Counted from the first letter of the stretch, positions 1 to 22,903 are shown. The stretch is 64,000 bases of DNA from Escherichia coli (GCF_045037415.1 NZ_CP173438.1); one strand, 5' to 3'. A program made the numbers and translations. Notes: generated from the sequence alone by a model not told the origin.

Positions 1-2
1 AA

Positions 3-722
3 GTATTACAAATTACGCGTAGTGAACTGGCAGAGTCCAGCAAACTGGCGGCGCTTGGACAGATGGCAACCGAAATTGCCCATGAACAAAATCAACCGTT
101 AGCCGCCATTCACGCACTTACTGATAACGCGCGTACTATGCTAAAAAAAGAGATGTATCCACAGGTTGAACAGAATCTGAAACACATTATTTCCGTGATT
201 GAGCGGATGACGCAGCTCATTTCCGAACTTAAAGCATTTGCCTCGCGCCATCGCGTACCTAAAGGTTCTGCCGATGTCATCAAAGTGATGTATAGCGCCG
301 TGGCGTTACTTAATCACAGCATGGAGAAAAATAACATTGAGCGACGAATAAAAGCCCCATCCATGCCGTTATTTGTCAATTGCGATGAACTCGGTCTTGA
401 ACAGATATTCAGTAATTTAATTAGCAACGCCTTAGATTCTATGGAAGGTAGCTCTTACAAACGACTGGATATCGCCATTCGCCAGGCAAATAACAAAGTT
501 ATTATTACCATTAAAGACAGCGGTGGCGGTTTTGCACCTGAAGTTGTCGATCGCATATTTGAACCATTTTTTACCACTAAACGTAGAGGAATGGGGTTGG
601 GACTGGCAATAGTCAGCGAAATTGTCCGAAATTCGAACGGCGCACTCCACGCCAGTAATCATCCTGAAGGCGGCGCAGTAATGACATTAACCTGGCCTGA
701 ATGGGGAGAAAAACATGAATAA
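3..722 (+). CDS. kguS: sensor histidine kinase, C-terminal part (5' end lies upstream of the window)
   Basis: Open frame from window edge; H-box (ATEIAHE) and HATPase_c-like C-terminus (DSGGGF, GMGLGL); 8-bp overlap with downstream response regulator; context matches the alpha-ketoglutarate utilisation island described in UPEC. Confidence 0.6.
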   Translation, partial: VLQITRSELAESSKLAALGQMATEIAHEQNQPLAAIHALTDNARTMLKKEMYPQVEQNLKHIISVIERMTQLISELKAFASRHRVPKGSADVIKVMYSAVALLNHSMEKNNIERRIKAPSMPLFVNCDELGLEQIFSNLISNALDSMEGSSYKRLDIAIRQANNKVIITIKDSGGGFAPEVVDRIFEPFFTTKRRGMGLGLAIVSEIVRNSNGALHASNHPEGGAVMTLTWPEWGEKHE

Positions 723-2073
723 TAAATTCAGTGAAATTACTATAGTTTATATTGAGGATAGTGACGATGTACGTTTTGCCTGTGAACAAACGCTCACGCT
801 GGCTGGTTATCGCGTTATTTCCTGTTGCGATGCAGAACACAGTATTCCCCTTATTCAAAGTCAGGCCAACATTATTATACTGACCGATGTCAGGTTACCT
901 GGAATATCAGGACTAGAGCTCCTCAGTTACATCAACGAAATGGATAGCAAAATTCCGGTTATTTTAATTACCGGACACGGTGACGTGGAAATGGCGGTGG
1001 ATGCCATGCGTAATGGTGCATTCGATTTCATTGAGAAACCAAGTAGCTCAGATAAATTATTGAGTATTATTGCCAGAGCGGTAGAAAAACGGCGATTGGT
1101 TTTAGAAAATCAGCAATTACTGGCGAATCTGCAACAGGAAAATGGCCCGGTGCTGATTGGTCGTAGTCCGCAGATGCAGCAACTGCGTAAAATGATCCTT
1201 AATGTCGCAGATACCGGTGCCGATGTCCTTATTTATGGTGAAACAGGTTGTGGTAAAGAAGTCGTCGCCAGAATGCTGCATCACTGGAGTACCCGCCGTC
1301 AGGGGCAGTTTGTTGCCTTAAACTGTGCAGGCTTACCAGAAACGTTGTTTGAAAGCGAAATATTTGGTCATGAGGCGGGCGCATTTACCGGTGCGGTTAA
1401 AAAGCGTATTGGAAAAATTGAACATGCAAATGGTGGTACGTTATTTCTCGATGAAATAGAGGGAATGCCATCAGGAATGCAGGTAAAACTGCTACGTGTA
1501 TTGCAGGAAAGAACCATTGAACGATTAGGTGCCAATCAATTAATTCCGGTGAATTGCCGTGTTATTGCAGCGACCAAGGAAGATTTACTGCGTCGCAGCG
1601 AAGAACATCTGTTTCGTCTCGATCTCTATTATCGTCTGAATGTGGTTAGCCTGAATATTCCACCTCTACGCCAGCGACGAGAAGATATCCCTGAACTGTT
1701 TTACTGGTTCGCCAGTCAGGCGGCACAAAAATATAATCGTCCTCTGCCTGATATTTCTCCCATGTTACTGGCCTGGTTGCAGTCACAAAGTTGGCCTGGC
1801 AATGTACGTGAACTTAAACACAATGCAGAGCGTTTTGTTCTCGGTTTACTGACCCACCACCAGCCAGTGCCAATGACTCAGCAAGAAGAGAGTGGTCTTA
1901 CCGCCTGCATTGATGCTTTCGAGAAAAAGTTAATCGAAGATATGCTGCGACAAACGGAAGGCCAGGTCAGTTTGACAGCGCGGCTATTACAGCTGCCGCG
2001 CAAGACTTTATATGACAAACTCAACAAACATCAGATTCAACCGCAAGTTTATCGACCAGAATCATCCAGCTAA
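715..2073 (+). CDS. kguR: sigma54-dependent response regulator (NtrC family: receiver + AAA+ sigma54 activator + C-terminal HTH)
   Basis: 452 aa; receiver domain, Walker A GETGCGKE, GAFTGA motif, C-terminal Fis-type HTH; not identical to ZraR. Confidence 0.65.
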   Translation: MNNKFSEITIVYIEDSDDVRFACEQTLTLAGYRVISCCDAEHSIPLIQSQANIIILTDVRLPGISGLELLSYINEMDSKIPVILITGHGDVEMAVDAMRNGAFDFIEKPSSSDKLLSIIARAVEKRRLVLENQQLLANLQQENGPVLIGRSPQMQQLRKMILNVADTGADVLIYGETGCGKEVVARMLHHWSTRRQGQFVALNCAGLPETLFESEIFGHEAGAFTGAVKKRIGKIEHANGGTLFLDEIEGMPSGMQVKLLRVLQERTIERLGANQLIPVNCRVIAATKEDLLRRSEEHLFRLDLYYRLNVVSLNIPPLRQRREDIPELFYWFASQAAQKYNRPLPDISPMLLAWLQSQSWPGNVRELKHNAERFVLGLLTHHQPVPMTQQEESGLTACIDAFEKKLIEDMLRQTEGQVSLTARLLQLPRKTLYDKLNKHQIQPQVYRPESSS

Positions 2074-3135
2074 TGCTGATTCCTGAGGATGTAACCCCAA
2101 ATCGATACCTTTGCGGGCGTAATGTTCAACTACCCAGGACCAGAATGATACCGGGATCGTAATCATCTTCGCATTGCGTTCCCGGTTGGCAGCTTCTGGC
2201 ATACCGGGGTAAATCACCGGATTGCCGCCAGGTTGAGGCTGCGTAGCTAACAGATAATCCGCAAAGAACTGCCCTTTCTCCCCTGCCAGATCGGTGAATT
2301 GATCAGGATCGATAATCAACGCAAAAAGATGATTATGCGCAGATCCATCCGTCTGATGATCTTCGGCGATCGTGTCACCACCAGATAAGATCCCCGCCAT
2401 CATTTCAATCATCAGTGCCAGGCCAAATCCTTTATGCTCACCAAATGGCAGTAACGCCCCTGGAGGATTGCTGAATAACACCCCAGGATCATTGCTTGGA
2501 TTCCCCTGTGCATCAATCAATTGTCCCGGCGCGGCCTGCTTCCCGGTGGACGACATTACCCGTGCTTTATTTAGCGCCATGCTACTGGTGGCAAAATCAA
2601 CCAGAATCGGCGGACGCCCATCACTGAACGGCCAGGCAAAGCAGAAAGGGTTAGTGGTCATACGCGGTTCCGCACCGCCCCACGGGGCGACCAGTGCAGG
2701 ACGCCCGGTGACGTTACTCATGGCCAGCATCGCCAGGCCTTGATCAGCAACCATTTGCCCGTAATGCCCCATACGCCCTAAATGATGCGCATGGCACAAC
2801 GTTAACAGGCAAAAACCGCGGTGTTTTGTTTGTTCGATGGCAGCATTTACCGCCACTTTTCCGGCGTGTTGACCAAAGCCATTGTGGGCATGAAAACGCT
2901 GTAAATTACCTTCACTTGTTAAGCATTCCGGGCGGGCATTCGCGGTTACATCGCCACGAGCGATATTTTCCAGATATTTCGGTAGCAGCGTGACGCCGTG
3001 GCTGGCAAAGCCATAACGTTCCGCTTCAATCATATGTTCCGCCACATCCTGAGCGATATCGGCATCACAGCCATTAAGTTCCAGCAGCCCGGCAGCTAAC
3101 CAACGCACTTTTTCAACAGCAATTTGTAATGACAT
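2062..3135 (-). CDS. Ldh_2 family (malate/L-lactate dehydrogenase-like) NAD(P)-dependent oxidoreductase
   Basis: ORF 2062..3273 trimmed to ATG at 3135 (MSLQIAVEKV...) preceded by GAGGA RBS; longer ORF would overlap the upstream permease. Confidence 0.6.
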   Translation of the reverse strand: MSLQIAVEKVRWLAAGLLELNGCDADIAQDVAEHMIEAERYGFASHGVTLLPKYLENIARGDVTANARPECLTSEGNLQRFHAHNGFGQHAGKVAVNAAIEQTKHRGFCLLTLCHAHHLGRMGHYGQMVADQGLAMLAMSNVTGRPALVAPWGGAEPRMTTNPFCFAWPFSDGRPPILVDFATSSMALNKARVMSSTGKQAAPGQLIDAQGNPSNDPGVLFSNPPGALLPFGEHKGFGLALMIEMMAGILSGGDTIAEDHQTDGSAHNHLFALIIDPDQFTDLAGEKGQFFADYLLATQPQPGGNPVIYPGMPEAANRERNAKMITIPVSFWSWVVEHYARKGIDLGLHPQESALAG

Positions 3136-3146
3136 CGTTGGTTTCC

Positions 3147-4646
3147 TCACATTAGACCTAAAATTTTCCACCAGGTGGCGGCAAACAGTAGCAACAACAG
3201 GTAGCCGATTACCGTCAGGTACAGTCCCACACGGGTAAACTGGCGTGGCGTGAAGGTATCCGTACCCATACACACCATATTTTGTGGCGCGTTAATCGGC
3301 AGGATGAAGCCAAAACTGACACTGAAGGCGAGCAGAATGGTCATGCCGACCGGGTTAACGCCGAGTTCTGGCGGCAGACTGCTTAACAGGCTAATCAGGA
3401 TGGGCAGCAATGCGGCAGTTAGCGCAGTGGCACTGGCAAACCCCAGGTGAATGATTATCAAGAAAGCGGCGAGAATCGCGAAGATGGCAAGTGATGGTAA
3501 ACCGTCAAGACCAAAACCTTTCACCACATAGTTCGCCATCCATGAAGCTGCCTGTGTATCAAGCAACGTGGACCCCAGGCTGATACCAATACCAAACATC
3601 AGCAACGTGCCCCACTGCACACGTTTTTCGACCTCTTTCCAGCTCATTACACCGATGCCTGGCAGCAACATAATCGCCAGTCCGGCAAGGGTGACAGAGG
3701 TGGTATCAATACTGTGTAATTTTCCGCCAGTAGACCAAAAGAGCAGTAACAACAGCGAAATACCGATCAAGCGTTTTTCTTTACCGGTGGTTGGCCCTAA
3801 CTCTGCGAGTGCTTTTTTAATGGCCTCGCTCCCCCCTTCAACAGCTTCCGTTTCTGGCGGCAACAATTTACGTGCGAGGAAATAGAGGATCACCGACATG
3901 GTGAGGCTCCAGGGCGCGCCCGCTAACAGCCAGTCAAGCCAGCTGACAGAATGCCCGGCGCCGAAAGTTTTATTGATAAAACCGATAGAAAGCAGGTTTT
4001 GCGCCGACGAAGTTTGAATACCAACGTTCCAGATACTGGTCGCCTGGGCGATAACAATCATCATTGACGCCGCTAAACGTGAATGTTTATCCACCTTAAA
4101 TGCCGCAATGACCCCCATCATAATCGGCACCACGCAAGCCGTACGGGCAGTGGCACTGGGTACGACCAGGCTCAGGACGATGGTCACCACAATGGCACCG
4201 ATAATAATGCTGCGGCTACTGGCACCTATTTTCGACATAGTAAACAGCGCAATACGTTTATCCAGCCCGGTAATGGTCATTGCCGCCGCGATAAACATTG
4301 CTGCTGCCACCAGCGCCAGAGCAGAATTAGAAAAACCCGACAGAGTCATTTTCAGCGCTTTCGCGGTGCCAAGGATCGTGTCCGGGTGATTCATATCCGG
4401 GGCAAAACCAACCATAAAGATAATCAGTGCGGAAATAACAATTGCACTGGCGGTGTAATCCATCGCTTCGCTGATCCAGACAATAATGGCAAACACCAGA
4501 ATGGCGATCATATTTTGTCCGGCGACGGGCAAGGTATCGCCCAGAGGCAGAAGAGTAATAATAATTCCGGCAATGATCGCCAACCACAGGCCGGGATTAG
4601 GGATAATTCGACGCTTTTGTGGTGCGCCATGTGATATTGATGACAT
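3147..4646 (-). CDS. anion permease (ArsB/NhaD/DASS-type), putative dicarboxylate/oxoglutarate transporter
   Basis: ~500 aa polytopic membrane protein; first gene of a 2-gene unit behind a candidate sigma54 promoter; start ATG 4646 (GTG 4652 possible). Confidence 0.6.
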   Translation of the reverse strand: MSSISHGAPQKRRIIPNPGLWLAIIAGIIITLLPLGDTLPVAGQNMIAILVFAIIVWISEAMDYTASAIVISALIIFMVGFAPDMNHPDTILGTAKALKMTLSGFSNSALALVAAAMFIAAAMTITGLDKRIALFTMSKIGASSRSIIIGAIVVTIVLSLVVPSATARTACVVPIMMGVIAAFKVDKHSRLAASMMIVIAQATSIWNVGIQTSSAQNLLSIGFINKTFGAGHSVSWLDWLLAGAPWSLTMSVILYFLARKLLPPETEAVEGGSEAIKKALAELGPTTGKEKRLIGISLLLLLFWSTGGKLHSIDTTSVTLAGLAIMLLPGIGVMSWKEVEKRVQWGTLLMFGIGISLGSTLLDTQAASWMANYVVKGFGLDGLPSLAIFAILAAFLIIIHLGFASATALTAALLPILISLLSSLPPELGVNPVGMTILLAFSVSFGFILPINAPQNMVCMGTDTFTPRQFTRVGLYLTVIGYLLLLLFAATWWKILGLM

Positions 4647-4686
4647 ATTCACCTCATTGTGAAAAATAAAAAACCTGCCTGGCTAT

Positions 4687-4702
4687 TGCAGGAGCTATGC
4701 CA
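4687..4702 (-). promoter_or_regulatory. candidate sigma54 (-24/-12) promoter for permease/Ldh_2 operon
   Basis: Minus-strand TGGCATAGCTCCTGCA (GG and GC spaced 10) about 40 bp upstream of the start codon. Confidence 0.45.
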
Positions 4703-4762
4703 TCTTTAATTTTTTAATAATGCTTTGTTATTTAATGATTTTATTATTTATTCTTTTTATTT

Positions 4763-4783
4763 TGTGCGCGGTTTTCCGCACAG
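4763..4783 (-). promoter_or_regulatory. imperfect palindrome, candidate enhancer (UAS) for the sigma54 activator
   Basis: TGTGCGCGG-TTTT-CCGCACAG about 70 bp upstream of the candidate -24/-12 element in an AT-rich region. Confidence 0.35.
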
Positions 4784-4813
4784 TAAATAAAAGGTGATTC
4801 TCTTACCACACAG

Positions 4814-4839
4814 ATAAAAAAAGGGAGCGATATGCTCCC
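4814..4839 (-). terminator. rho-independent terminator after sucD-like gene
   Basis: Minus-strand hairpin GGGAGC-ATAT-CGCTCCC followed by T7 tract, 20 bp after the stop. Confidence 0.6.
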
Positions 4840-4857
4840 TTGATATTCATTTATGGA

Positions 4858-5730
4858 TTACTTAATAACATTCCATAACGTTTCGCCAAGCAACGCCGGG
4901 TTTCTTGTCCATGCCATGCCTGCTTTATCGAACGCACGGAATTTATCCTCTGCACTGCCGCTACCGCCAGAAATAATGGCTCCGGCGTGTCCCATGCGTT
5001 TTCCTTTTGGTGCAGTAACACCGGCAATATAACCTACGACCGGTTTATTCATATCATGGCGAATAAATTCCGCGGCCCGTTCTTCCGCATTACCACCAAT
5101 TTCACCGATCATAATTACCGCGTCTGTTTGCGGATCATTTTCGAATAAACGCAGCGCATCAATAAAGTTAGTCCCCGGAACCGGATCGCCGCCAATACCA
5201 ATACAGGTGGATTGCCCAAGTCCCAGCGCCGTGGTTTGCGCTACAGCTTCGTAGGTTAATGTACCGGAGCGGGAAACAATCCCAATACGCCCTGGGCGGT
5301 GGATTTCACCAGGCATAATCCCGATTTTGCACTCACCCGGCGTGATAACTCCTGGGCAGTTTGGCCCAATCAGCCGCACATCCGGGTGGCAGTCAAGCAG
5401 CCGACGAACTTTCACCATATCCAGTGTCGGTACACCTTCAGTGATCACCACAACCAATTTGACGCCAGCTTCAATAGCCTCAACAACAGAATCCAGCACA
5501 AACGGTGCAGGCACATAAATCACGCTGGCATCGGCCTCAGTTTGTCGCATCGCATCTTTCATTGAATCAAAAACCGGGCGATCCAGATGCCGTTGCCCGC
5601 CCTTACCAGGCGTCACTCCACCCACAATCTGCGTGCCATACGCAATAGCCTGCTCTGTATGAAATGTGCCGTTTTTGCCGGTAATGCCCTGCACCAGTAC
5701 CCGCGTGTGTTTGTTGATCAAAACGCTCAT
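4858..5730 (-). CDS. succinyl-CoA synthetase alpha subunit paralog (SucD-like)
   Basis: 290 aa, strongly SucD-like (CoA-binding GxTG, GHAGA phospho-His region). Confidence 0.85.
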
Positions 5731-5742
5731 CTTAACCTCCTG

Positions 5743-6912
5743 TTAATTCAGTAACGCAATGATGCGTTTCGCGGCATCATCCAGAGAATCGACGGCTTCC
5801 ACCGTCAGACCACTTTCTGCCAGTAACCGCTGCCCTTCGGCGGCGTTATTACCGGAGAGACGCACCACGACAGGCAGGGTGATGCTGGCCTCATTCAGAG
5901 CATGAATAATGGCTCTGGCGATCATGTCGCAACGGACAATCCCACCAAAAATATTAACCAGAATGGCTTTCACTTTGCTGTCGGAAACAATCAGCCGAAA
6001 GGCTTCACTGACGCGCTCCTGGGTTGCGCCACCGCCAACATCCAGGAAGTTTGCGGGTTGTTCACCGTATAGCTTGATGATGTCCATGGTTGCCATAGCC
6101 AGCCCTGCACCATTGACCATGCAGCCGATATTTCCGTCCAGCGAGACATAATTAAGATCAAGCTTCGCTGCCTGGCTTTCGCGTGGATCTTCCTGGGTTT
6201 CATCACGTAGCACCTGGAGTTCCGGGTGACGATACAGCGCGTTATCATCCAGCGATACTTTCGCGTCTGCACACATAAATTCGCCCGTTTCCCGCAACAC
6301 CAGAGGGTTAATTTCCAGCAGGGCAAAATCCAGTTCGTTAAAGGCTTTCCACGCCTGATTAACCAGGCGACTAAAGGCAGCAAATAGTCCGTGTTCCAGT
6401 TGCAGAACAGCAAACATTTCGCGGATATGGCAAGGCTGCACGCCTGTCAGTGGATCAATGCTGACACTGCTGATTTTCTCCGGTGTCTCATGGGCGACTT
6501 TTTCAATTTCCACACCACCTTCCGGGCTGACAATAAACGTGACCCGCTGGCTTTCACGATCCACCACCATGCCAAAATAGAGTTCCTGGCGTACCGGATA
6601 AATGTTTTCGCACAGTAAAATACTGCTGACATACTGTCCTTCTGGCCCGGTCTGATAAGTCACCAGTTGCGATCCCAACATTTGCTGTACAAAAGCCTGT
6701 GCTTCCGGCAGCTGCTTAAGCACTTTTACGCCGCCAGCTTTACCGCGCCCACCAGCATGTACCTGCGCTTTAAGTACCGCGCCTTTACTCGGGCAAGCAA
6801 TATGTTGCCAGGCATCTGCCAGTTGCGAAATCTGTTGGATAGCTATCTCTTTTGGACACGGCATCCCCATGCCAGCCAGTAACGATTTGGCCTGATACTC
6901 ATGTAAATTCAT
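5743..6912 (-). CDS. succinyl-CoA synthetase beta subunit paralog (SucC-like)
   Basis: 389 aa, ATP-grasp N-terminus MNLHEYQAK..., SucC-like throughout. Confidence 0.85.
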   Translation of the reverse strand: MNLHEYQAKSLLAGMGMPCPKEIAIQQISQLADAWQHIACPSKGAVLKAQVHAGGRGKAGGVKVLKQLPEAQAFVQQMLGSQLVTYQTGPEGQYVSSILLCENIYPVRQELYFGMVVDRESQRVTFIVSPEGGVEIEKVAHETPEKISSVSIDPLTGVQPCHIREMFAVLQLEHGLFAAFSRLVNQAWKAFNELDFALLEINPLVLRETGEFMCADAKVSLDDNALYRHPELQVLRDETQEDPRESQAAKLDLNYVSLDGNIGCMVNGAGLAMATMDIIKLYGEQPANFLDVGGGATQERVSEAFRLIVSDSKVKAILVNIFGGIVRCDMIARAIIHALNEASITLPVVVRLSGNNAAEGQRLLAESGLTVEAVDSLDDAAKRIIALLN

Positions 6913-6933
6913 ATATTCCCTCAGTGGTGTGTG

Positions 6934-8352
6934 TTATCCGTGTAATGCTTTATTATTCAAGGCCATTGCTGCTTCGTGGATGACTTCGCTTAATGTCGGA
7001 TGCGCATGGATCGCACAGGCAATATCCTCGCCAGAGGCGCTAAAAGTCATCGCCAGCGCAATTTCATTAATCAGCTCCGATGCCTGCGGGCCAACAATCG
7101 CTCCGCCAAGTACGCGGTCAGTGTGTTTATCACTGTATAACGTGCAACGCCCACCTTCCTGGCCTAATGCTAAGGCGCGACCGTTACCGGCAAACAGAGA
7201 ATTTCCTTTGTTAAAGACTCTGCCAGCGGCTTTCAGTGAGGCCTCGTTTTCCCCTACCCACGCAACTTCCGGTTGGGTGTAAATCACCGAAGGGATCAGC
7301 GCAAAATTAATCGGCTCTACCACCAGTCCGGCAATTTGATCAGCCACCACTACACCTTCAGCCATCGCTTTATGCGCCAGCATCGGCCCTCGCACGACAT
7401 CACCAATTGCCCACAGCCCGGCTTTCCCGGTACGGCATAAGTTATCGACGGCAATACCGCCACGGTTATCGGCTTCAAGACCGAGTTGCACGAGATCGAC
7501 ACCAGAAAGTCGCGGTACACGTCCAATGGCAAGAATTAATTTATCGAAGCGGCTTTCTTCTCGCTTCTCACCCTGCCGCCAGCGCACATGCACACCGTCA
7601 TCCCGTTGTTCAATAGCCTCAATCTCTACTGCCAGTTGCATTTTCATCCCACTGGCAATCATTGCTTTACGGACTTCGTTCGACAGGCGAGCTTCCAGTG
7701 CAGGCAAGAACGTTGGCGCCATCTCCAGCAACGTGACGTCTGAACCAACCCGATTCCACACAGACCCCAGTTCAAGGCCAATCACGCCAGCGCCGATCAC
7801 ACCGAGACGCGGCGGCACTTCGCTCAATGCCAGGGCGCCACGATTGTCGAGGATCTGTTGATTATCAATGGTAACGCCAGGCAGCTGACGCGGCTGAGAA
7901 CCTGTTGCAATCACTACATTACGGGCGTGAAGGTGTTGATCGTTTACACGTAATTGCCAAATCTCATCCTGAGCACATTCTAACGTTGCGAGGCCGCACA
8001 GGTGCTTCACTTTATTTTTCTTAAACAGCAAGCTGATGCCCATTGTCAGGCGGCTTACTATGGCGTCTTTACGTTGAATCATCGCAGCTGCATTGAAAGA
8101 TACGCCGTCAACATTAACGCCATGAATGCTCGCCTCATGCTGCACTTGCGCGTACAGTTCGGAAGATTGCAGCAACGATTTTGACGGAATACAGCCGACA
8201 TTGAGACACGTACCGCCCGGCGAAGGTTCGCCCTGTGCATTAACACCATCATCAATACATACTACGGAAAGCCCATTCTGCGCAGCCCGCAGTGCCGCTA
8301 CGTAACCACCTGGCCCCCCCCCCATAACTGCCACATCAAAAATTGTACTCAT
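6934..8352 (-). CDS. dihydrolipoyl dehydrogenase (E3) paralog
   Basis: 472 aa; FAD GGGPGGY motif, redox-active CxxxxC (GGTCLNVGCIPSK). Confidence 0.85.
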   Translation of the reverse strand: MSTIFDVAVMGGGPGGYVAALRAAQNGLSVVCIDDGVNAQGEPSPGGTCLNVGCIPSKSLLQSSELYAQVQHEASIHGVNVDGVSFNAAAMIQRKDAIVSRLTMGISLLFKKNKVKHLCGLATLECAQDEIWQLRVNDQHLHARNVVIATGSQPRQLPGVTIDNQQILDNRGALALSEVPPRLGVIGAGVIGLELGSVWNRVGSDVTLLEMAPTFLPALEARLSNEVRKAMIASGMKMQLAVEIEAIEQRDDGVHVRWRQGEKREESRFDKLILAIGRVPRLSGVDLVQLGLEADNRGGIAVDNLCRTGKAGLWAIGDVVRGPMLAHKAMAEGVVVADQIAGLVVEPINFALIPSVIYTQPEVAWVGENEASLKAAGRVFNKGNSLFAGNGRALALGQEGGRCTLYSDKHTDRVLGGAIVGPQASELINEIALAMTFSASGEDIACAIHAHPTLSEVIHEAAMALNNKALHG

Positions 8353-8363
8353 CGGCGCCCTCC

Positions 8364-9518
8364 TTAAAGATCCAGCAACAGTTGTTCCGGTGATTCCAGT
8401 AGCTCACGTATTGCCACCAATGTATGCACGGCTTCCTGACCATCGATAATGCGATGGTCATAGCTGAGAGCAAGGTACATCATGGGACGAATAACAACCT
8501 GACCGTTTTCTGCGACCGGGCGCGGCGTGATGGCATGCATCCCAAGAATGGCCGACTGCGGCGGGTTAATGATTGGCGTTGACATCATCGAACCAAAAGT
8601 ACCGCCGTTGGTGATAGAGAACGTGCCGCCCTGTAACGCCTCCAGCGGCAATTTGCCATTGCGTGCCTGTGTGGCGTATTCGGCAATTTGCCGTTCAATT
8701 TCCACCAAAGAGAGTGATTGCGCATTGCGTAACACAGGCACTACCAGGCCGCGGTTGCTGCTCACTGCAATGCCGATATCGCAATAATCACGCCAGATAA
8801 TCTCGTTGCCATCGACGCTGGCATTCACTACAGGGAAGCGCTCCAGCGCCCGGGTAACGGCCTTAACAAAGAAGGACATAAAGCCCAGCTTCACGCCGTG
8901 CTTCTCGGCAAAACGATCTTTCCAGCGGGCGCGTAAGTCCATCACGCTCTGCATGTTTACTTCGTTGAATGTGGTAAGAATGGCGTTATTTTGTTGGGAA
9001 GCCAGCAGACGCTCAGCAATTCGCTGACGTAAGCGCGACATCGGCTCACGACGTTCCTGACGAGCACCCGGTGTCAAGGGTTTAGCTGGCGCGATCTCCG
9101 CCACCCGTTCAGGCTGAATGGCTGGTGCAGGAGTAACGCGCTGCACATCCTCTTTCAGGATACGTCCATTTCTCCCGCTCCCCGCAACGTCAGCAAGTTC
9201 GACACCACTACGCTGTGCCTCCAGCCGTGCGGAAGGCATCGCCAGGGTTTCGGTGACTGGTGTGACGGTTTCTTCTATGACAGCTTGCGGCTTAAGATGC
9301 GCCAACAGTTGCGCGGACGTGACCGTGCTACCTTCGCTGACGATAATATTGCTTAACACGCCATCGTGCGGGGCCGGTATTTCCAGAATGACTTTATCGG
9401 TTTCCAGCTCGGCAATCACATCATCGCGTTTTACGTGCTCGCCTTCTTGTTTACACCAGGTTGTCAGCGTGCCTTCCGTGACAGATTCCGGTAATACAGG
9501 GACAGTAATTTCGATCAT
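8364..9518 (-). CDS. dihydrolipoyllysine succinyltransferase (E2) paralog (SucB-like)
   Basis: 384 aa; lipoyl domain (ETDKV), catalytic domain with DHRxxDG motif. Confidence 0.85.
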
Positions 9519-9550
9519 AAAATGTTCTCCTTATTATTTTTGTGCGCCTT

Positions 9551-12295
9551 TCATGGCTGAATATCTGCAAACGCAGCAGCAAGAAATTCGTCGATTTGTT
9601 GTTTATGTACACGCCCATACCCTGTCGCTGGTGCTGCCGCTGCCGGGCGGCCTGCATACTGCCAGTAAGGAGTGTTAATTTTCAGTGCCGCCAGCTCATG
9701 ACGAATCTGCCGCCACGCGCCCTGGTTTTCTGGCTCTTCCTGCAACCAAATCCATTCGCAGCAGTTCGGCCAACTCGCCAGAACATCATTCAGTTCTGCG
9801 ACCGGGAACGGGTAGAGTTGCTCCAGGCGAACAATCGCTACCTCGTCTTCATGCTCACGCTGCTTACGGGCTTCCAGTACGTCGTAATAGACCTGGCCGC
9901 TACACAAAATAACGCGCTTAACTTTCTGGGACTGATGCAATTGCGGATCGGTGATTACCGGTTTATAAGCGTCATCAGTGAATTCACAAAGCTCGCTCAT
10001 CGCGCCTTTAAACCGAAGTAAACGCTTACTCATCATTATCACTAACGGTTTGCGCATTGGGCGTAATGCCTGACCGCGCAACAAATGGAACATTTGTGCT
10101 GACTCACTGGGCATCACCACCTGCATGTTGTTTTCTGCGCACAGTTGCAGCCAGCGCTCAGGACGTGCGGAAGAGTGCTCCGGCCCTTGTCCGTCATAGC
10201 CATGCGGCAGAAGAATGGTTAAACCGCTATAGCGATCCCACTTGGTTTCGCCAGACGAGATAAATTGGTCAATAGCAACCTGAGCGCCGTTGGCAAAGTC
10301 ACCAAACTGTGCTTCCCAAATAACCAGTTGCTGAGGCGCAGACGTTGAATAGCCATATTCAAAGGCTAAGAGCGCTTCTTCATTAAGCACCGAATCATAA
10401 ACATCGAAAGATGCCTGACCAGCGCGGATATGCTGTAACGGCAGATAACGACGGGCTTCCGTTTGATGATGTACCACTGCATGGCGATGACTGAACGTGC
10501 CACGCCCTGAGTCTTCACCAGAAAGACGCACACCAACACCCGCATCCACAAGCGATGCATAGGCCAGCATTTCAGCCATTCCCCAGTCTACTGGCTGAGT
10601 ACCTGCGGCCATATCCTGGCGTAACGCCAGTTGCCGTTTAATGGTAGGATGTGCGACCACATCGGGTGGCAGTGTAGAAATGATTTCACCATACGCTGCC
10701 AGCTTTTGCCGAGGCAATGCCGTAGATACCGGGGCGCTCCAGTGAGGGTTGGTCAACCCATACCAGTTAGCGCTAAAAGAGTGAATTGCAGGTTTGAGAG
10801 GCTGCGGTTCACGTTTCTGGCAGCTATCCAGCCAGTCGCGATAGCGTGCCGTCATCTCATCTTGTTGCGCCTGAGTTAACAGGCCGCGGCGGGCAAGAGA
10901 TTCACCATAACGGGCGAGCGTACCAGGGTGAGCATCCACTGCCTGATACATTTGTGGCTGGGTAAGACGTGGCTCATCGCTTTCGTTGTGTCCGTGCTTA
11001 CGGAAGCAGCAAATATCGATGATGATGTCACGCCGGAAGGTGTCTCGCCATTCGCACGCCAGTTCCATTACCTGGCAAACAGCGTCAACGTCATCGCCAT
11101 TAACGTGGATAATTGGGGCCGCTACCATTTTGGCAATATCGGTGCAGTACCGTGAAGAACGCATATCCTGCAAGCGGGAAGTGGTGAAGCCAATCTGATT
11201 GTTAATCACCAGATGTAGCGTACCGCCAGTGCCGTAGCCCTGAGTCTGCGATAAGTTAAACGTGGTTTGGTTGACGCCGAGGCCGCCCAACGCGGAATCC
11301 CCATGAATAAGTACGCCCACCACTTTTGCCTGACCATCCTCACCACGGCGTTCCTGCCTGGCTCGCACCTGGCCCAGCACCACCGGATTCACGATCTCCA
11401 GATGTGAGGGGTTATACGCCAGCGCCACATGCAGCGAACCGGCAGGTGTTTCCAGATTGCTGGAATACCCCATGTGGTATTTCACATCGCCTGAACCACT
11501 GCCGATCGTCTGCTTGCCTTCAAACTCAGCAAAAAGCTGTGCCGGGTCTTTATTCAACAGATTAACCAGAACATTAAGTCTTCCCCGGTGCGCCATGCCA
11601 ATGACCATTTCCTCCACACCTTGCGCACGCAGGCGTTTTGTCAGCGTATCGAGCGCCGGGATTGCACTTTCGCCCCCTTCCAGAGAAAACCGTTTCTGCC
11701 CAACATAACGGGTATGCAGATAACGCTCTAACGTCTCTGCCGCCATCAGTTTTTCAAAACGAGCAATACAGGTTTGGGCATCAGCTTGTGGCGCATTGCT
11801 GCTCTCAATCCGTGATAACAACCAGTTGATTTCTTCACGATTTTCCAGATGAGCAAGTTCATAAGCCTGGCTACTGGCCCAGGCTTGCTCCAGCAGGTTA
11901 AGCAGTTGCTTAAGTGGCATTTGCGTGGTGTGTGCGCCAAAGGTGACGCTAAACTCCTGCAACAAGTCTTCTTCGCTTAATCCCCAAAAACCAGGCTGGA
12001 GGGAGGGAACGTCAGCCGGGGGATTCAAACCAAGTGGATCAAGCTTTGCGCGCAGATGCCCCTGCGTGCGCCAGGCATTGATCAGTTGTATTACCGCAGC
12101 CTGTTTTTTTAAGGTCGCACCGCTGATATTGTTATCACCGGATACGCTTTGGACAGTCAGTTCAGGTGAAAGAAAAAAACGCCGCCAGTCTTCCGGGAGT
12201 TGTTCCGGCGTACGCAACCAGGTCTGGTAGTACTCTTCAAGCCAGGTCGCGTTATCTCCACTAAGCAGCGTGCCGGGCGAGGTCATGTTCTCCAT
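9551..12295 (-). CDS. 2-oxoglutarate dehydrogenase E1 paralog (SucA-like)
   Basis: ORF 9551..12418 trimmed to ATG at 12295 (MENMTSPG...) with AGGAGA RBS; >900 aa, SucA-like. Confidence 0.8.
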   Translation of the reverse strand: MENMTSPGTLLSGDNATWLEEYYQTWLRTPEQLPEDWRRFFLSPELTVQSVSGDNNISGATLKKQAAVIQLINAWRTQGHLRAKLDPLGLNPPADVPSLQPGFWGLSEEDLLQEFSVTFGAHTTQMPLKQLLNLLEQAWASSQAYELAHLENREEINWLLSRIESSNAPQADAQTCIARFEKLMAAETLERYLHTRYVGQKRFSLEGGESAIPALDTLTKRLRAQGVEEMVIGMAHRGRLNVLVNLLNKDPAQLFAEFEGKQTIGSGSGDVKYHMGYSSNLETPAGSLHVALAYNPSHLEIVNPVVLGQVRARQERRGEDGQAKVVGVLIHGDSALGGLGVNQTTFNLSQTQGYGTGGTLHLVINNQIGFTTSRLQDMRSSRYCTDIAKMVAAPIIHVNGDDVDAVCQVMELACEWRDTFRRDIIIDICCFRKHGHNESDEPRLTQPQMYQAVDAHPGTLARYGESLARRGLLTQAQQDEMTARYRDWLDSCQKREPQPLKPAIHSFSANWYGLTNPHWSAPVSTALPRQKLAAYGEIISTLPPDVVAHPTIKRQLALRQDMAAGTQPVDWGMAEMLAYASLVDAGVGVRLSGEDSGRGTFSHRHAVVHHQTEARRYLPLQHIRAGQASFDVYDSVLNEEALLAFEYGYSTSAPQQLVIWEAQFGDFANGAQVAIDQFISSGETKWDRYSGLTILLPHGYDGQGPEHSSARPERWLQLCAENNMQVVMPSESAQMFHLLRGQALRPMRKPLVIMMSKRLLRFKGAMSELCEFTDDAYKPVITDPQLHQSQKVKRVILCSGQVYYDVLEARKQREHEDEVAIVRLEQLYPFPVAELNDVLASWPNCCEWIWLQEEPENQGAWRQIRHELAALKINTPYWQYAGRPAAAAPATGYGRVHKQQIDEFLAAAFADIQP

Positions 12296-12330
12296 GTTTT
12301 TCTCCTGATGGTCATAGACAGCTGCATTAC

Positions 12331-12346
12331 TGCACAATCCGTACCA
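12331..12346 (-). promoter_or_regulatory. candidate sigma54 (-24/-12) promoter of the sucA-like operon
   Basis: Minus-strand TGGTACGGATTGTGCA (TGG...GC with canonical spacing) ~36 bp upstream of the start codon. Confidence 0.45.
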
Positions 12347-12440
12347 ACAGTTAAAAACACTAATTTTCAAAAACTTATAGAAAAGAGATGATGTAAAAGT
12401 GGGCGAAAAAAGGGACAAAATAGTAGGGAGTGGCTGGAGT

Positions 12441-12464
12441 CAGGAACAGGCGGAGAGATCCGCC
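12441..12464. promoter_or_regulatory. perfect 10-bp inverted repeat (candidate activator binding site and/or tyrB 3' hairpin)
   Basis: AACAGGCGGA-GAGA-TCCGCCTGTT, ~100 bp upstream of the candidate sigma54 promoter and 13 bp past the tyrB stop; no U tract. Confidence 0.35.
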
Positions 12465-12476
12465 TGTTGATTAAAA

Positions 12477-13670
12477 TCACATCACCGCAGCAAACGCCTT
12501 TGCCACGCGATGCACATTTTGCGTGTTAAGCCCGGCGACACACATGCGACCGCTGGCGATGAGATAGACACCAAATTCTTCACGTAGTTGGTCAACCTGA
12601 GCGGCACTTAAACCGGTATAACTGAACATGCCGCGCTGATTAAGCAGATAATCGAAATTGCGTTCTGGCATCTCTGTGCTCAATACCTTCACCAGTTCCT
12701 GACGCATTGCCAGAATGCGAGTTCGCATCTCTTCTACTTCCACCAGCCAGCTGGCTTTCAATGCCTCGTCATTCAGCACCGCAGCCACCACCTGCGCACC
12801 AAAATTCGGCGGGCTGGAGTAGTTGCGGCGAACAGTTGCTTTCAATTGCCCCAGTACGCGGCCTGCGGCTTCGGCATCTTCACACAGAACAGAAAGTCCG
12901 CCGACGCGCTCGCCGTAAAGGGAGAAAATTTTCGAGAACGAATTGCTCACCAGAGCGGGTAATCCAGCGCTGGCAATGGCGCGAATGGCGTAGGCATCCT
13001 CTTCCATACCGGCACCAAATCCTTGATAGGCAATATCAAGAAATGGGATAAGCTCACGGGCTTTGAGAATTTCAATCACCGCATCCCACTGCTCATTAGT
13101 GAGATCGGCACCCGTTGGGTTGTGGCAACATGGATGCAGCAACACAATACTGCGGGCAGGTAATGTTTTCAGCGTCGCCAACAGGTCATTAAAGCGCACG
13201 CCGTTAGTCGCTTCGTCATACCAGGGGTAAGTACTTACTTCGAATCCAGCCCCGGCGAATATTGCTACGTGGTTTTCCCAGGTAGGATCGCTGACCCAGA
13301 CGCTTGATTCCGGGAAGTAGCGTTTCAGGAAATCTGCGCCCACTTTCAATGCCCCTGAGCCGCCAAGGGTTTGAATGGTTGCTACGCGCTGTTGTTGCAG
13401 TACCGGATGGTCCGCACCAAACAGCAGCGGCGCAATGGCATGGCGATAGCTGTTAAGCCCTTCCATCGGTAAATAAAGCGAAGCACCATGAGGCTGCGCA
13501 TTCAGGCGCGCTTCCGCATCCGCCACGGCTTTCAGTTGTGGAATAATTCCGTCTTCGTTGTAGTACAGACCGATACTTAAATTCACTTTGTCGCTGCGAG
13601 GGTCTTCTTTAAAACGCTCCATAAGCGTAAGAATCGGGTCGCCAGCGTAGGCGTCAACTTTTTGAAACAC
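12477..13670 (-). CDS. tyrB: aromatic amino acid aminotransferase
   Basis: TyrB-like 397 aa from GTG start at 13670 ([13 protein letters not shown]...); ORF-finder N-terminal extension removed. Confidence 0.9.
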
Positions 13671-13751
13671 GCGATGGTTCTCCAGGTTTACGGGCAGGTG
13701 GTTAAACCACAATAAACCGGAAGAAGGCGAAGATCGAGAGGATGTTCAAAG

Positions 13752-14780
13752 TCAGTCGGGAAGTTGGCGAAGAATTTGCTCCACTCGCTCTTGCAGTGGC
13801 CCCGAAACCGAAAGATAAGGAATGTTCCTGCGCGACAATTCCTGTTCATACCACACCTGTTGCCGTGCGCGAAATACCTCTCCTTGCCGGGTGCCATCCT
13901 GCACGAAGGGAAATTCTGCGCCGCAAAGCACTACCAGAGAGTATTCCCGCTCCGCCAGTTGGTGAAGTTCTTGCGGAGCATGACCATATTGATCAAGGGC
14001 ATAGAATAAGGTCGTGAGTGGCGACGTGTCACATATAAGATAGTGATTAGCTTCTGCTTGTTGTTCCCGGCGTACCTGTTCGCAGGCGATATGCAACAAA
14101 TCATCCGCAGTTAAGATACCGTTTTTTTCTTCCCAATAGTCGCGGCCAAATTCAGCGACATACACCGTATCAAGCACGCCCGCCAGCGCTTTTGAAAGCG
14201 TGCTTTTACCGGTAGATTCGCCACCAAGCAGACAGATACGGCGAACGAAACTGTAATAAACATCATTCGCCAACATGTAGCGATAGCGGTGAACATCGGA
14301 ACGAATAAGCGTTCCCGAAGGCGCTTCATCGCCAACTGGGCGCGCCATTCGAACGTGTTCAACGGGTTGGGCAAAACGCCGCGCCAGCACGTTAGCAAAG
14401 CCATCGCCATAGTCTTCTGCAGTAAATACAGCGTGTGGGCGGCAACGTAATATCTGCAAGCATAGCGTCGCCACATAATGACGGTGGATGTCGGCATCAG
14501 CATTGTTATGCGGGATAGCAGGTAAGTTATAACGCGCAACAAGCTCTGGCGTCAGTACCAAAAACGTCGCTTGCGGGAAGCGCACTTGCAGCCACGTCAG
14601 GCGCTTTTCAGGTTCACAGTCAGGCATTTCCGGCACGGAATAACTGATGATGAACAGTTCTTCACATTGCGCCAGTGCGGTATTGATCAACTTTTCATGA
14701 CCACAATGCAAAGGCGCGAATTTACCAACCACCAGACCCGTTGCAAAAGGCTTCATGATGTTTGCAACTCTTTGCGCCAT
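13752..14780 (-). CDS. NadR-like bifunctional NMN adenylyltransferase / ribosylnicotinamide kinase lacking the N-terminal HTH
   Basis: HxGH nucleotidyltransferase motif (HCGH), Walker A GGESTGKST; 342 aa; alternative start MKPF at 14756 abuts the pnuC-like stop. Confidence 0.65.
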   Translation of the reverse strand: MAQRVANIMKPFATGLVVGKFAPLHCGHEKLINTALAQCEELFIISYSVPEMPDCEPEKRLTWLQVRFPQATFLVLTPELVARYNLPAIPHNNADADIHRHYVATLCLQILRCRPHAVFTAEDYGDGFANVLARRFAQPVEHVRMARPVGDEAPSGTLIRSDVHRYRYMLANDVYYSFVRRICLLGGESTGKSTLSKALAGVLDTVYVAEFGRDYWEEKNGILTADDLLHIACEQVRREQQAEANHYLICDTSPLTTLFYALDQYGHAPQELHQLAEREYSLVVLCGAEFPFVQDGTRQGEVFRARQQVWYEQELSRRNIPYLSVSGPLQERVEQILRQLPD

Positions 14781-15310
14781 TGATACAAACCATACCAGGC
14801 GTTAATCCAGAACAGGAAATATAAGCCAGCGGTCAGGTTTAAACCGCGCGTCATATACAGTGGCACCGCCAGGGTATTCACCGCTAACCAGACGTACCAG
14901 TTTTCGATACGTCTTCCCATCAACATGAATTGTGCCAGAACGCTGAAGGTCAAAATCAACGAATCCAGCCAGGGTGCCCAAGCATTGGTAAAGGTGTGGA
15001 GTAAAAAGCCGTAACCGCCTGCCACGACGACAGCACAGAGCAACAAAAGGAAAAAGTGACTGGCTTGCGTTCGGCGCACCGGCAAGATGTCGCCACCCTG
15101 ACCTTTCAGCCAGTGGATCCAGCCAGTGATGCTGGTCACGATGAAGAATAACTGGAGCGTAACGTCGGCATAGAGTTGCACGGACCAAAAAACCCAGCCG
15201 TACAATATGCTGCCAATTATGCCGATCCACCATGTATGCACATTGTTTCTGGCAGCCAGCCAGACGGAAACCGCGTATGCCAGACACGCGGCGATTTCTG
15301 AATAAGACAT
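14753..15310 (-). CDS. PnuC-family nicotinamide riboside transporter-like membrane protein (short form)
   Basis: 185 aa, Trp-rich TM segments typical of PnuC; 22 bp after alr stop. Confidence 0.6.
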   Translation of the reverse strand: MSYSEIAACLAYAVSVWLAARNNVHTWWIGIIGSILYGWVFWSVQLYADVTLQLFFIVTSITGWIHWLKGQGGDILPVRRTQASHFFLLLLCAVVVAGGYGFLLHTFTNAWAPWLDSLILTFSVLAQFMLMGRRIENWYVWLAVNTLAVPLYMTRGLNLTAGLYFLFWINAWYGLYQWRKELQTS

Positions 15311-17952: not shown

Positions 17953-18987
17953 TTAACGCCCCCGCTTTCCGGTGGAAGCGCGAATTTGCAGGGTCGGGCG
18001 ATAGATGTAATGGCTGAGCGGTGCGTCTGGTTGCGCAATACGCCGTAAAATTTGCTGCGCCGCCTGTTTCCCCAGAGCCAATGGTTCTACCGCAATTGTG
18101 GTTAACGGCGGGTTACTGTAAGCACAAGCCGCCACGCCATCATTACCAATCAACGAAATATCTTCCCCGGCAAATAATCCTCTTTCGCCTAGTGCCGACT
18201 CCGCGCCAAAAGCCATTAAATCGTTATAACAAATCACCGCTGTGGGTGGCGAAGGCATATCCAACAGCTGTTGCATCAACTGGTAGCCGTTGGCCTGAGT
18301 CGGTTCAGCACGCAGCGAAAAAGCATCAGTACTCCACGGCTGTAAACCATGGTGATTCATCGCCTCAAGGTATCCCTGATAACGCATATGGTGCGTAAGA
18401 CCACCAATAAACACGATATCTCTGTGCCCTTGTTGAATGAGATATTCCGTCGCTTCCCGTACACCTGCGTGGCTGTCCACGCCAACGTAATCGACGGGCA
18501 ATTGTTGCCAATCCAGAGGGCGCATCGTGATTAATAAGGGTGTGGAACTGTTGGCATAACGCTGTAAATCGGCTTCTGAGGTACTGTTCACTGGACAGAG
18601 GACAATGCCCGCGACGTGGTGTTCCAGCAAGGTATCAAGCACCTGTTTTTGCCGGTCACTACGCTGGGAGGTATTGGACATCACGGTGATAAAACCGTGC
18701 TCCGCCAGCGTCATCTCAAGACCCATAGTAAATTCAGCGAAGAAAGGATTTATCAAATCGTCAATGACTACGCCGATAGTTAGCGATTTTTGCGAACGCA
18801 GATTGGCAGCAAAACGGTTATAGACATAGCCTAATTGTTCAATGGCTTGCTGGACTTTTTGTTGCGTCTCTTTTTTGATAAGTGAACTGTCGTTGAGAAC
18901 CAGCGATACAGTCGATTTCGAAACGCCAGCCGCACGCGCAACATCGGTTAATGTTACCCGCTTTCTTCCTGTATCCGACTTCGCCAT
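17953..18987 (-). CDS. LacI-family transcriptional regulator
   Basis: N-terminal HTH (VTLTDVARAAGVSKSTVSLVLN) + periplasmic-binding-protein-like domain; start ATG 18987; divergent from the 19243 operon. Confidence 0.8.
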   Translation of the reverse strand: MAKSDTGRKRVTLTDVARAAGVSKSTVSLVLNDSSLIKKETQQKVQQAIEQLGYVYNRFAANLRSQKSLTIGVVIDDLINPFFAEFTMGLEMTLAEHGFITVMSNTSQRSDRQKQVLDTLLEHHVAGIVLCPVNSTSEADLQRYANSSTPLLITMRPLDWQQLPVDYVGVDSHAGVREATEYLIQQGHRDIVFIGGLTHHMRYQGYLEAMNHHGLQPWSTDAFSLRAEPTQANGYQLMQQLLDMPSPPTAVICYNDLMAFGAESALGERGLFAGEDISLIGNDGVAACAYSNPPLTTIAVEPLALGKQAAQQILRRIAQPDAPLSHYIYRPTLQIRASTGKRGR

Positions 18988-19047
18988 GCCTGCTCCAAAC
19001 CCCCATAAGATCAAGGCAATTACTTTATCATAATCTCCTTTTACTCA

Positions 19048-19074
19048 TGCGATCCGTTAACGCAAGGGATCGCA
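19048..19074. promoter_or_regulatory. candidate operator palindrome in regulator/operon intergenic region
   Basis: TGCGATCC-N11-GGATCGCA inverted repeat in the AT-rich divergent promoter region. Confidence 0.3.
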
Positions 19075-21586: not shown

Positions 21587-21612
21587 TCGCCTCTTACAAG
21601 GAAAGAAAGATA

Positions 21613-22893: not shown

Positions 22894-22903
22894 GTGGGAC
22901 GCA

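Follow-up and report, generated by a model that had tools for sequence, protein, structure and literature searches.

Positions 3-12476 of the window, the 64,000-nucleotide stretch of an Escherichia coli chromosome (NZ_CP173438.1) analysed here, almost certainly correspond to the KguS/KguR alpha-ketoglutarate (alpha-KG) utilisation island, c5032-c5041 of uropathogenic E. coli (UPEC) CFT073. This island is already described in uropathogenic E. coli, and it is present here in an intact form that is ordinary for the strain type. As anticipated by the original prediction, which had pointed to the Kgu island from the gene content, window positions 1-13798 align with CFT073 4,806,800-4,820,597 as a single ungapped block of 98.9% nucleotide identity, with 152 substitutions across 13.8 kb. 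Gene order and gene lengths are identical to those of CFT073 (kguS-kguR, followed on the other strand by c5039-c5038 and c5037-c5032), and the nine island proteins differ from their CFT073 counterparts by 1-10 residues, the ten being in the E3 protein. Earlier work on the Kgu system (Cai et al., 2013, PLoS Pathog, PMC3694859; Cai et al., 2017, 2021, Front Microbiol, PMC5318444, PMC8716947) reported that both promoter fragments are bound by KguR, and that the island is involved in anaerobic growth on alpha-KG and in fitness in the mouse urinary tract; in CFT073, alpha-KG induces the target genes and KguS, KguR and RpoN are needed (PMC3694859). The present computations establish island identity, paralogy, intactness, promoter elements and the conservation of the cluster and of its promoter layout across lineages, and no contradiction to the published Kgu model was met.

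Genes were called from open reading frames, the RefSeq annotation of a 100%-identical genome and NCBIfam profiles, and every element of the expected content, namely a kinase/NtrC-type regulator pair, a permease, an Ldh_2 protein and sucA-sucB-lpd-sucC-sucD-like genes, was recovered. The histidine kinase gene kguS (c5041; 3..722, + strand), recognised by histidine-kinase NCBIfam matches, is indeed present, but only as the C-terminal 239 of 606 aa, since the window starts inside the gene; this part differs by one residue from residues 368-606 of CFT073 KguS and includes the H-box ATEIAHEQNQP with His394, as numbered in PMC3694859. It overlaps by 8 nt with kguR (c5040; 715..2073, + strand), whose product shows one amino-acid difference from CFT073 KguR. 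KguR combines a receiver, in which Asp58 accepts the phosphate, with an AAA+ domain that contains both a Walker A motif (GETGCGK at 175) and GAFTGA (at 222) and with a C-terminal HTH, and is accordingly an NtrC-family sigma54 enhancer-binding response regulator; its best NCBIfam matches, NtrC and AtoC, are full-length, yet fall below the equivalog cut-offs. KguR, KguS and the Ldh_2 protein all miss the NCBIfam cut-off of every named equivalog. In a 50% cluster library, KguS has a single cluster at 58% identity, and the next ones are at 40-41%; the second-best (P0122, 40% identity) was rejected as a Kgu system, its context being unrelated and devoid of dehydrogenase genes. Growth of a kguS mutant on alpha-KG was unimpaired (Cai et al., 2013, PMC3694859), so the signal input is only partly explained.

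The expectation of a single target operon held for the suc-like genes, which form one operon, but not for the permease and Ldh_2 genes, which constitute a separate sigma54 operon. An intrinsic terminator after c5037 (4821..4841, - strand; hairpin AAGGGAGCATATCGCTCCCTT followed by TTTTTTT) separates the two, and two operons were also observed by RT-PCR (PMC3694859); apart from this terminator at 4841-4821, generic sigma70 and terminator scans gave background level. The first gene of the transporter operon, c5038 (3147..4646, - strand), encodes a DASS-family (CitT-like) dicarboxylate transporter (TIGR00785, 242 bits versus a cut-off of 199), which differs by one amino acid from its CFT073 counterpart and functions as an anaerobic alpha-KG importer (PMC5318444). 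The second gene, c5039 (2062..3135, - strand), whose 3' end overlaps that of kguR by 12 nt, encodes an oxidoreductase of the Ldh_2 family and adjoins the DASS gene in all four of the other orthologous clusters that cover this region. Its score against the YbiC-type profile PRK10098/NF007504 (276.8 bits) is below the cut-off of 336 and does not place it in that type; among solved structures, YbiC of E. coli (2G8Y, E = 5e-52) is the nearest. An activity of YbiC (HcxB) on 2-oxoglutarate is conjectural, and a search of the available literature gave no report of it.

The dehydrogenase/synthetase operon, on the - strand, begins with the E1 gene c5032 (sucA-like 2-oxoglutarate dehydrogenase paralog of 914 aa; 9551..12295; NF006914, 1212 versus 764 bits) and continues with paralogs of dihydrolipoyllysine succinyltransferase (E2o, c5034, sucB-like; 8364..9518; NF004309, 552 versus 449 bits), dihydrolipoyl dehydrogenase (E3, c5035, lpd-like; 6934..8352; TIGR01350, 479 versus 409 bits), the ADP-forming succinyl-CoA synthetase beta subunit (c5036, sucC-like; 5743..6912; NF001913, 532 versus 370 bits) and the succinyl-CoA synthetase alpha subunit (c5037, sucD-like; 4858..5730; NF004230, 469 versus 336 bits). 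These five proteins and the DASS transporter all exceed curated NCBIfam cut-offs, and the equivalog cut-offs for E1o, E2o and lipoamide dehydrogenase assign the first three to a 2-oxoglutarate dehydrogenase complex. Translation of E1 starts from the ATG at 12295, which is preceded by a good ribosome-binding site and agrees with RefSeq; a 955-aa E1 reading frame from TTG at 12418 was discarded, its start lying upstream of the sigma54 promoter. Rfam gave no RNA family match in positions 1-14000, so that the sucD paralog is not followed by an SdhX-like RNA.

These genes are paralogs and not the housekeeping suc genes, as the original prediction had held: amino-acid identities to K-12 SucA, SucB, Lpd, SucC and SucD amount to 48.6, 50.2, 38.4, 56.0 and 67.2%, and similarities to 64, 70, 57, 71 and 83%, in agreement with Cai et al. 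(2013, PMC3694859). They lie at a different locus from K-12 sucABCD/lpd and are not housekeeping orthologs. Island-bearing genomes harbor two sucA-like loci, and the second copy elsewhere is the housekeeping sucA, which is about 65-67% identical at the nucleotide level over partial stretches. The enzyme families and the order sucA-sucB-...-sucC-sucD would fit a block that had arisen by recent duplication, or as a misplaced copy, of housekeeping sucAB-sucCD and lpd, but the proteins are only 38-67% identical, lpd is embedded in the island operon, unlike in the housekeeping locus, the closest kin are the clusters of E. albertii, of Pectobacterium and of two contigs from metagenomes and not E. 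coli sucA, and the block has a sigma54 regulation of its own; such an origin, to which we give practically no credence, is already refuted by the measured identities. The paralogous island thus resembles housekeeping sucABCD/lpd in enzyme families and chemistry, from alpha-KG to succinyl-CoA and succinate, whereas its E3 gene lies inside the operon, its expression depends on sigma54/KguR and is induced anaerobically, rather than depending on sigma70 and being repressed by ArcA/FNR, and its 3' UTR is too short for an SdhX-like RNA. The substrate of the complex deserves a separate consideration. In SucA, His260, His298 and His313 bind the distal carboxylate, and the equivalents of all three are conserved in every orthologous E1. 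A complex acting mainly on another 2-oxo acid, for instance 2-oxoadipate or another C5-C6 oxo-dicarboxylate, with alpha-KG use as a side activity, would be compatible with an E1 only 49% identical to SucA, with the co-transcription of an Ldh_2 oxidoreductase and the transporter, and with an enzymatic specificity that is a prediction from sequence and growth phenotypes. It is nevertheless very unlikely, given that the three histidines are retained, that E1 and E2 exceed the equivalog cut-offs for 2-oxoglutarate enzymes, that alpha-KG alone induces, whereas 2-hydroxyglutarate, glutamate, glutarate, fumarate and succinate do not (PMC3694859), and that a deletion prevents anaerobic growth on alpha-KG while leaving growth on C4 dicarboxylates intact (PMC3694859). 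Specificity of the island enzymes for 2-oxoglutarate is predicted from the growth phenotypes and the conserved E1 histidines.

The regulatory layout of both operons is readable from the sequence and conserved. A scan of the 64 kb for the sigma54 -24/-12 pattern TGGYAY-N6-TGCW returned two matches only, located 51 and 56 nt before the operon start codons. The promoter of c5038-c5039 (TGGCATAGCTCCTGCA; 4687..4702, - strand) is the same in CFT073 and is kept in four lineages, and its predicted start at 4676, 12 nt past the -12 GC, coincides with the start mapped by 5'-RACE 30 nt before the ATG (PMC5318444). A proximal KguR site (TGTGCGGAAAACCGCGCACA; 4763..4782, - strand), 80 nt upstream of the -24 TGG, is identical to the EMSA-validated CFT073 site, and KguR-type sites stand 79-81 nt upstream in Pectobacterium and in the metagenomic contigs L009 and L088 as well. 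A candidate distal site (TGTGTGGTAAGAGAATCA; 4795..4812, - strand; PWM 8.5), located 110 nt before the -24 TGG, may also function in KguR binding, a site of this type being found at 110-111 nt in all four lineages. Every transporter promoter exhibits paired KguR-type sites, one about 80 nt and the other about 110 nt before the -24 element.

The promoter of c5032-c5037 (TGGTACGGATTGTGCA; 12331..12346, - strand), the second match of the scan, has a predicted start at about 12320 and is also found before E1 in E. albertii, Pectobacterium and L009. Its published KguR site, TGTGTG-N13-CGCGCA in CFT073, falls at 12520..12544 (- strand), within the tyrB coding sequence, has a spacing of N13 and not N6, is absent in E. 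albertii, and reads CACGCA instead of CGCGCA in its right half in the present chromosome. For these reasons this site is a doubtful cis-element of the c5032 operon. A testable alternative is now offered by two putative sites within island DNA. The candidate proximal site (TGTCCCTTTTTTCGCCCA; 12400..12417, - strand), 71 nt upstream of the -24 TGG, is the top PWM match (9.7) within 305 nt upstream and is unchanged in E. albertii, and Pectobacterium has a site at the equal 71-nt offset; this offset ranks first of 225 in the joint E. coli/Pectobacterium profile, a result reached by 19 of 2000 permutations. The candidate distal site (TGTTCCTGACTCCAGCCA; 12431..12448, - strand) lies 102 nt before the -24 TGG, where it shares sequence with the 3' arm of the tyrB terminator; its PWM score is weak (2.2), but its offset ranks second in the same joint profile. 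With a spacing of 31 nt, the pair mirrors that of the c5038 promoter, and the degenerate sites at 12417-12400 and 12448-12431 may be the real enhancer of c5032-c5037, replacing the published site in tyrB.

Collinearity with K-12, from which the block is missing, stops at 12476, one base past the stop codon of tyrB (12477-13670, - strand). The block was rightly proposed as a non-K-12 marker, and its junction with tyrB was correctly placed; aphA, however, is not displaced, since island-bearing genomes that match the window at 100% identity retain it on the far side of kguS (a region outside the window), and the island replaces instead a 966-bp K-12 segment containing yjbS. It is a chromosomal accessory block of the tyrB-aphA interval. 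The hairpin after tyrB (12445..12468, - strand; AACAGGCGGA-TCTC-TCCGCCTGTT) is island DNA, unlike the K-12 sequence there. Of 5426 complete E. coli genomes, 1044 (19%) carry the E1 gene of the island and 5425 give a housekeeping sucA match. The nine-gene cluster is kept whole in Pectobacterium zantedeschiae and in the MAG contig L009, with 52-83% amino-acid identity; E. albertii (L007) holds the cluster, the locus ending after sucD, and so does the Logan metagenome contig L088, where E1 is cut off. Sigma54 promoters and paired KguR-type sites stand at fixed offsets in these orthologous clusters. A word-indexed protein search with the island E1 returned near-identical E. coli sequences only, the edge of L009 contained no complete tRNA according to ARAGORN, and by tblastn no island E1 ortholog was detected on true plasmids, the matches being housekeeping sucA on mislabelled chromosomes and one 27-kb E. 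coli fragment.

Absence from K-12, presence in only 19% of complete genomes, the reported UPEC association (PMC3694859) and the lower GC content of kguSR (44-46%) could evoke a mobile, self-transferring pathogenicity island restricted to uropathogens. This is hardly credible, since the block neither contains nor adjoins an integrase, a transposase, a tRNA target or a flanking repeat, E. albertii has it at the same tyrB junction, a 966-bp alternative segment was replaced rather than a target site used for insertion, identical copies occur in human faecal and yak isolates, and a plant pathogen carries an ortholog. On these grounds the block resembles an old alternative haplotype that has spread through homologous recombination in the flanking DNA, and not a mobile element. 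The island labels the chromosome as carrying a published fitness island typical of extraintestinal, phylogroup-B2-like E. coli, which is of use for typing and nothing new, but it is not specific to UPEC, being carried by faecal and animal isolates, E. albertii and plant-pathogenic Pectobacterium.

In the mechanism, which we regard as very probable, KguS, a membrane kinase of the DctB type whose periplasmic part is a dCache domain, would sense external alpha-KG and phosphorylate KguR, an NtrC-type activator with GAFTGA that would bind paired upstream sites (TGTGYGG-N4-YCGCRCA) and activate the two sigma54 promoters. The first would drive c5038-c5039, for the DASS transporter and the Ldh_2 oxidoreductase, and the second c5032-c5037, for the E1, E2 and E3 components of 2-oxoglutarate dehydrogenase and both succinyl-CoA synthetase subunits. 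Imported alpha-KG would be converted to succinyl-CoA, CO2 and NADH, then to succinate with substrate-level ATP, and the pathway would run under anaerobiosis, when housekeeping sucABCD is repressed.

Three further features might be combined with this mechanism, although we hold their conjunction, an island-internal enhancer pair at the c5032 promoter, an NADH-tolerant E3 and an Ldh_2 enzyme re-oxidising NADH, to be only a tentative and rather doubtful proposition. If the enhancer pair is real, paired sites about three helical turns apart, fixed relative to a sigma54 promoter, would represent the regulon design in several lineages. The change E354K in Lpd relieves NADH inhibition, and in the alignment the island E3 has Gln at the position of Lpd Glu354 (YTQPE versus YTEPE), with His in the Pectobacterium E3. 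Because Glu354 is replaced in both, the island may carry its own E3 for tolerance to a high NADH/NAD ratio; this difference at the NADH-inhibition residue could provide a biochemical reason for a second complex, and it would be E3, not transcription alone, that lets 2-oxoglutarate dehydrogenase work anaerobically. The Ldh_2 protein might in turn re-oxidise NADH by reducing a 2-oxo acid, which would make alpha-KG breakdown redox-balanced.

Comparable systems are known in other bacteria. MifS/MifR of Pseudomonas aeruginosa is likewise of the DctB/DctD type and alpha-KG-specific, and acts on the sigma54 promoter of an alpha-KG transporter, PA5530 (PMC4482717); unlike KguSR, it is associated with a transporter only, of a different family, without dedicated dehydrogenase/synthetase genes. 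Rhizobial DctB/DctD and E. coli DcuS/DcuR and CitA/CitB also pair a periplasmic dCache/PDC kinase with a regulator of TCA-acid uptake and catabolism, but their ligands are C4 or C6 compounds whereas that of Kgu is C5. DctD resembles KguR in its tandem upstream sites and its use of sigma54, while DcuR and CitB, unlike KguR, are not sigma54 activators.

The window opens on the C-terminal 239 residues of the histidine kinase KguS (3-722) and the sigma54-dependent response regulator KguR (715-2073), both on the plus strand, followed on the minus strand by an Ldh_2 oxidoreductase (2062-3135), a DASS transporter (3147-4646), the alpha (4858-5730) and beta (5743-6912) subunits of succinyl-CoA synthetase, a dihydrolipoyl dehydrogenase (E3; 6934-8352), an E2o succinyltransferase (8364-9518), E1o (9551-12295) and, past the island, tyrB (12477-13670). 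The ORF listing and the NCBIfam profiles agree with the RefSeq annotation of a genome that matches the window at 100% identity, so the gene content predicted for 3-12476 is confirmed. Curated NCBIfam equivalog cut-offs are exceeded by all five enzyme subunits; KguR, KguS and the Ldh_2 protein have family-level matches only. The proposed match to the Kgu island of uropathogenic CFT073 is borne out as well: window 1-13798 aligns with it (region compared, 4,806,800-4,824,000) as a single ungapped block at 98.9% identity, and the nine island proteins equal their CFT073 counterparts in length, with 1 to 10 residue differences each.

This island, c5032-c5041, was described by Cai et al., 2013 (PMC3694859), and later studies dealt with the c5038 transporter (PMC5318444) and the KguR regulon (PMC8716947). 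Published work established that alpha-ketoglutarate (alpha-KG) induces the system and its analogues do not, that induction is lost in kguS, kguR and rpoN mutants, that both promoter fragments are bound by KguR, that deletion of c5032-c5039 abolishes anaerobic growth on alpha-KG, and that mouse bladder and kidney colonisation is reduced (PMC3694859, PMC5318444, PMC8716947). The finding is real and was correctly interpreted, the island is intact here and the system is already known; the new material is comparative only and concerns distribution, a conserved paired-site layout, an apparently doubtful published cis-element with a candidate alternative, and a residue difference in E3.

Identity of the island enzymes to K-12 SucA, SucB, Lpd, SucC and SucD is 48.6, 50.2, 38.4, 56.0 and 67.2%, respectively, and similarity is 64, 70, 57, 71 and 83%, which reproduces the published values (PMC3694859). 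In a sensitive nucleotide search of 5426 complete E. coli genomes, 1044 carried the island E1 gene, these carriers having two sucA-like places; the sole E1 match of genomes without the island is the housekeeping sucA, at about 65-67% nucleotide identity over partial length. The low protein identities (38.4-67.2%) and the two places in carriers argue against the alternative that this block is the housekeeping locus itself, and the genes are paralogs distinct from it, as originally predicted. The island E1 gene also occurs, at 99.5% identity, in NZ_CP048308.1, a 27-kb E. coli record with a plasmid label; this is probably a piece of the chromosome and not a plasmid-borne copy.

Collinearity with K-12 stops at window 12476, 1 base past the tyrB stop, in line with the proposed position on the tyrB flank; on the far side it ends outside the window, 138 bp upstream of the aphA start codon. 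The view that aphA occupies this place in K-12 has to be amended, as the 13.7-kb island stands in place of 966 bp of K-12 including yjbS and aphA is kept in the island-bearing genome identical to the window. The ORF listing, the annotation and an RNA-family search of the island region showed neither integrase nor transposase, tRNA or RNA family, and GC content, at 44-46% over kguSR, is otherwise close to the genome average. Divergence of tyrB from K-12 is 15% in its last 60 nt versus 2.1% over the rest of the gene, and this island-type end occurs in 1044 complete genomes, a number equal to that of island carriers. E. albertii harbors the island at the same tyrB junction, yet its tyrB end is K-12-like. 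Relative to K-12, the 3' end of tyrB (12478-12530) presents two amino-acid changes and a TGA instead of a TAA stop.

With one genome per species scanned for relatives of E1, only three of the matches listed exceeded 55% identity: those in Escherichia albertii (92%), in Pectobacterium zantedeschiae (63%) and on a MAG contig (59%). All other matches listed (53% or less) were housekeeping SucA of beta- and gammaproteobacteria. Gene order in Pectobacterium is that of E. coli and is permuted in the MAG, whose gene set is the same; proteins of these two clusters are 52-83% identical to those of the E. coli island. Only one cluster of a 50%-identity library is close to KguS (58%), and it is located on a metagenomic contig with the complete E. 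coli-type gene order; the next are at 40-41%, and a 40% KguS-like protein was rejected as a Kgu system given its unrelated gene context. The Kgu cluster is a conserved but rare unit. Uropathogens are not its only hosts: one carrier is a plant pathogen, and the sources of identical E. coli copies include human faeces and yak. The MAG is labelled Flavobacteriia whereas its genes are of proteobacterial type, which makes the bin assignment doubtful. Its contig starts with an apparent tRNA 3' end (positions 1-40, GGTTCGATTCCCGC...CCA); ARAGORN found no complete tRNA at this edge, where the contig is cut.

KguR has Asp58, the Walker A motif and GAFTGA, and KguS the H-box histidine corresponding to His394. 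Throughout the 64 kb, TGGYAY-N6-TGCW has two matches only, at 4702-4687 and 12346-12331, respectively 56 nt before the start codon of c5038 (transporter) and 51 nt before that of c5032 (E1). For c5038, the position 12 nt past the -12 GC is 4676, the published 5'-RACE start, 30 nt before the ATG (PMC5318444). A terminator at 4841-4821 lies between the two operons, in agreement with published RT-PCR (PMC3694859), and positions 4782-4763 hold the validated KguR palindrome. The kguS promoter, which lies just beyond the window edge (positions 4764-4901 of locus L001), has a validated KguR site, TGTGCGATAAACCACACA, only about 35 nt upstream of TGGCAC; since TGGTT then stands in place of a good -12 element, this autoregulated promoter seems to depart from the standard sigma54 type.

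A sigma54 promoter precedes the transporter gene in all four lineages, and E1 in every lineage whose sequence includes that region. With a weight matrix of the form TGTGYGG-N4-YCGCRCA, derived from the validated sites of c5038 and kguS together with their palindromic orthologs, every transporter promoter has two predicted KguR sites, 79-81 and 110-111 nt upstream of the -24 TGG. Upstream of E1, E. coli and E. albertii share their top match, TGTCCCTTTTTTCGCCCA, at 71 nt (window 12417-12400), with a weaker candidate at 102 nt (12448-12431); candidates lie at 71 and 101 nt in Pectobacterium, and in the MAG at 111 nt, with another at 80 nt by eye. Of 225 offsets in a joint E. coli/Pectobacterium profile, 71 ranks first and 102 second, and 19 of 2000 permutations reached the top value; because this test was chosen after the sites had been seen, its backing of the candidates at 71 and 102 nt is only supportive. 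The published c5032 site, TGTGTG-N13-CGCGCA (PMC3694859, PMC8716947), falls within the tyrB coding sequence, differs in spacing from the matrix form, reads CACGCA in its right half in this window, and is missing from E. albertii. This cis-element therefore seems doubtful on sequence grounds, with a candidate alternative inside the island; the published EMSA does not discriminate between them, because its probe spanned all candidate sites (PMC3694859).

Regarding the need for a second complex, the histidines equivalent to SucA His260, His298 and His313, which in SucA have a role in binding the distal carboxylate, are conserved in the island E1, consistent with 2-oxoglutarate as the probable substrate. 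At the position of Glu354 in K-12 Lpd, the aligned residue is Gln in the island E3, His in Pectobacterium and Asp in the MAG. In Lpd, E354K serves to lower the NADH sensitivity of pyruvate dehydrogenase (PMC4799531), and an NADH-tolerant island E3 would explain anaerobic function. The Ldh_2 protein is nearest to E. coli YbiC (structure 2G8Y), below the family cut-off, and its gene is linked to the transporter gene in every ortholog; a role in re-oxidising NADH is speculative.

Elsewhere in the window, the interval between tyrB and alr (13752-15310) holds an AAA-family ATPase gene and pnuC (nicotinamide riboside transporter); in K-12 and E. albertii it is only a short intergenic region, and CFT073 also has this insertion. 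Between dnaB and qorA, neighbours in K-12, a five-gene accessory block (17953-24940) encodes a LacI-type regulator, an acyl-CoA:acetate/3-ketoacid CoA transferase, an enoyl-CoA hydratase, a transporter and an FAD-dependent oxidoreductase, the transporter being of the Nramp family here whereas CFT073 has an MFS gene at the same place. A sorbose PTS operon between pepE and rluF (about 53871-59584), comprising sorE, four PTS subunits, an SDR oxidoreductase and a regulator, appears to be a further accessory block.
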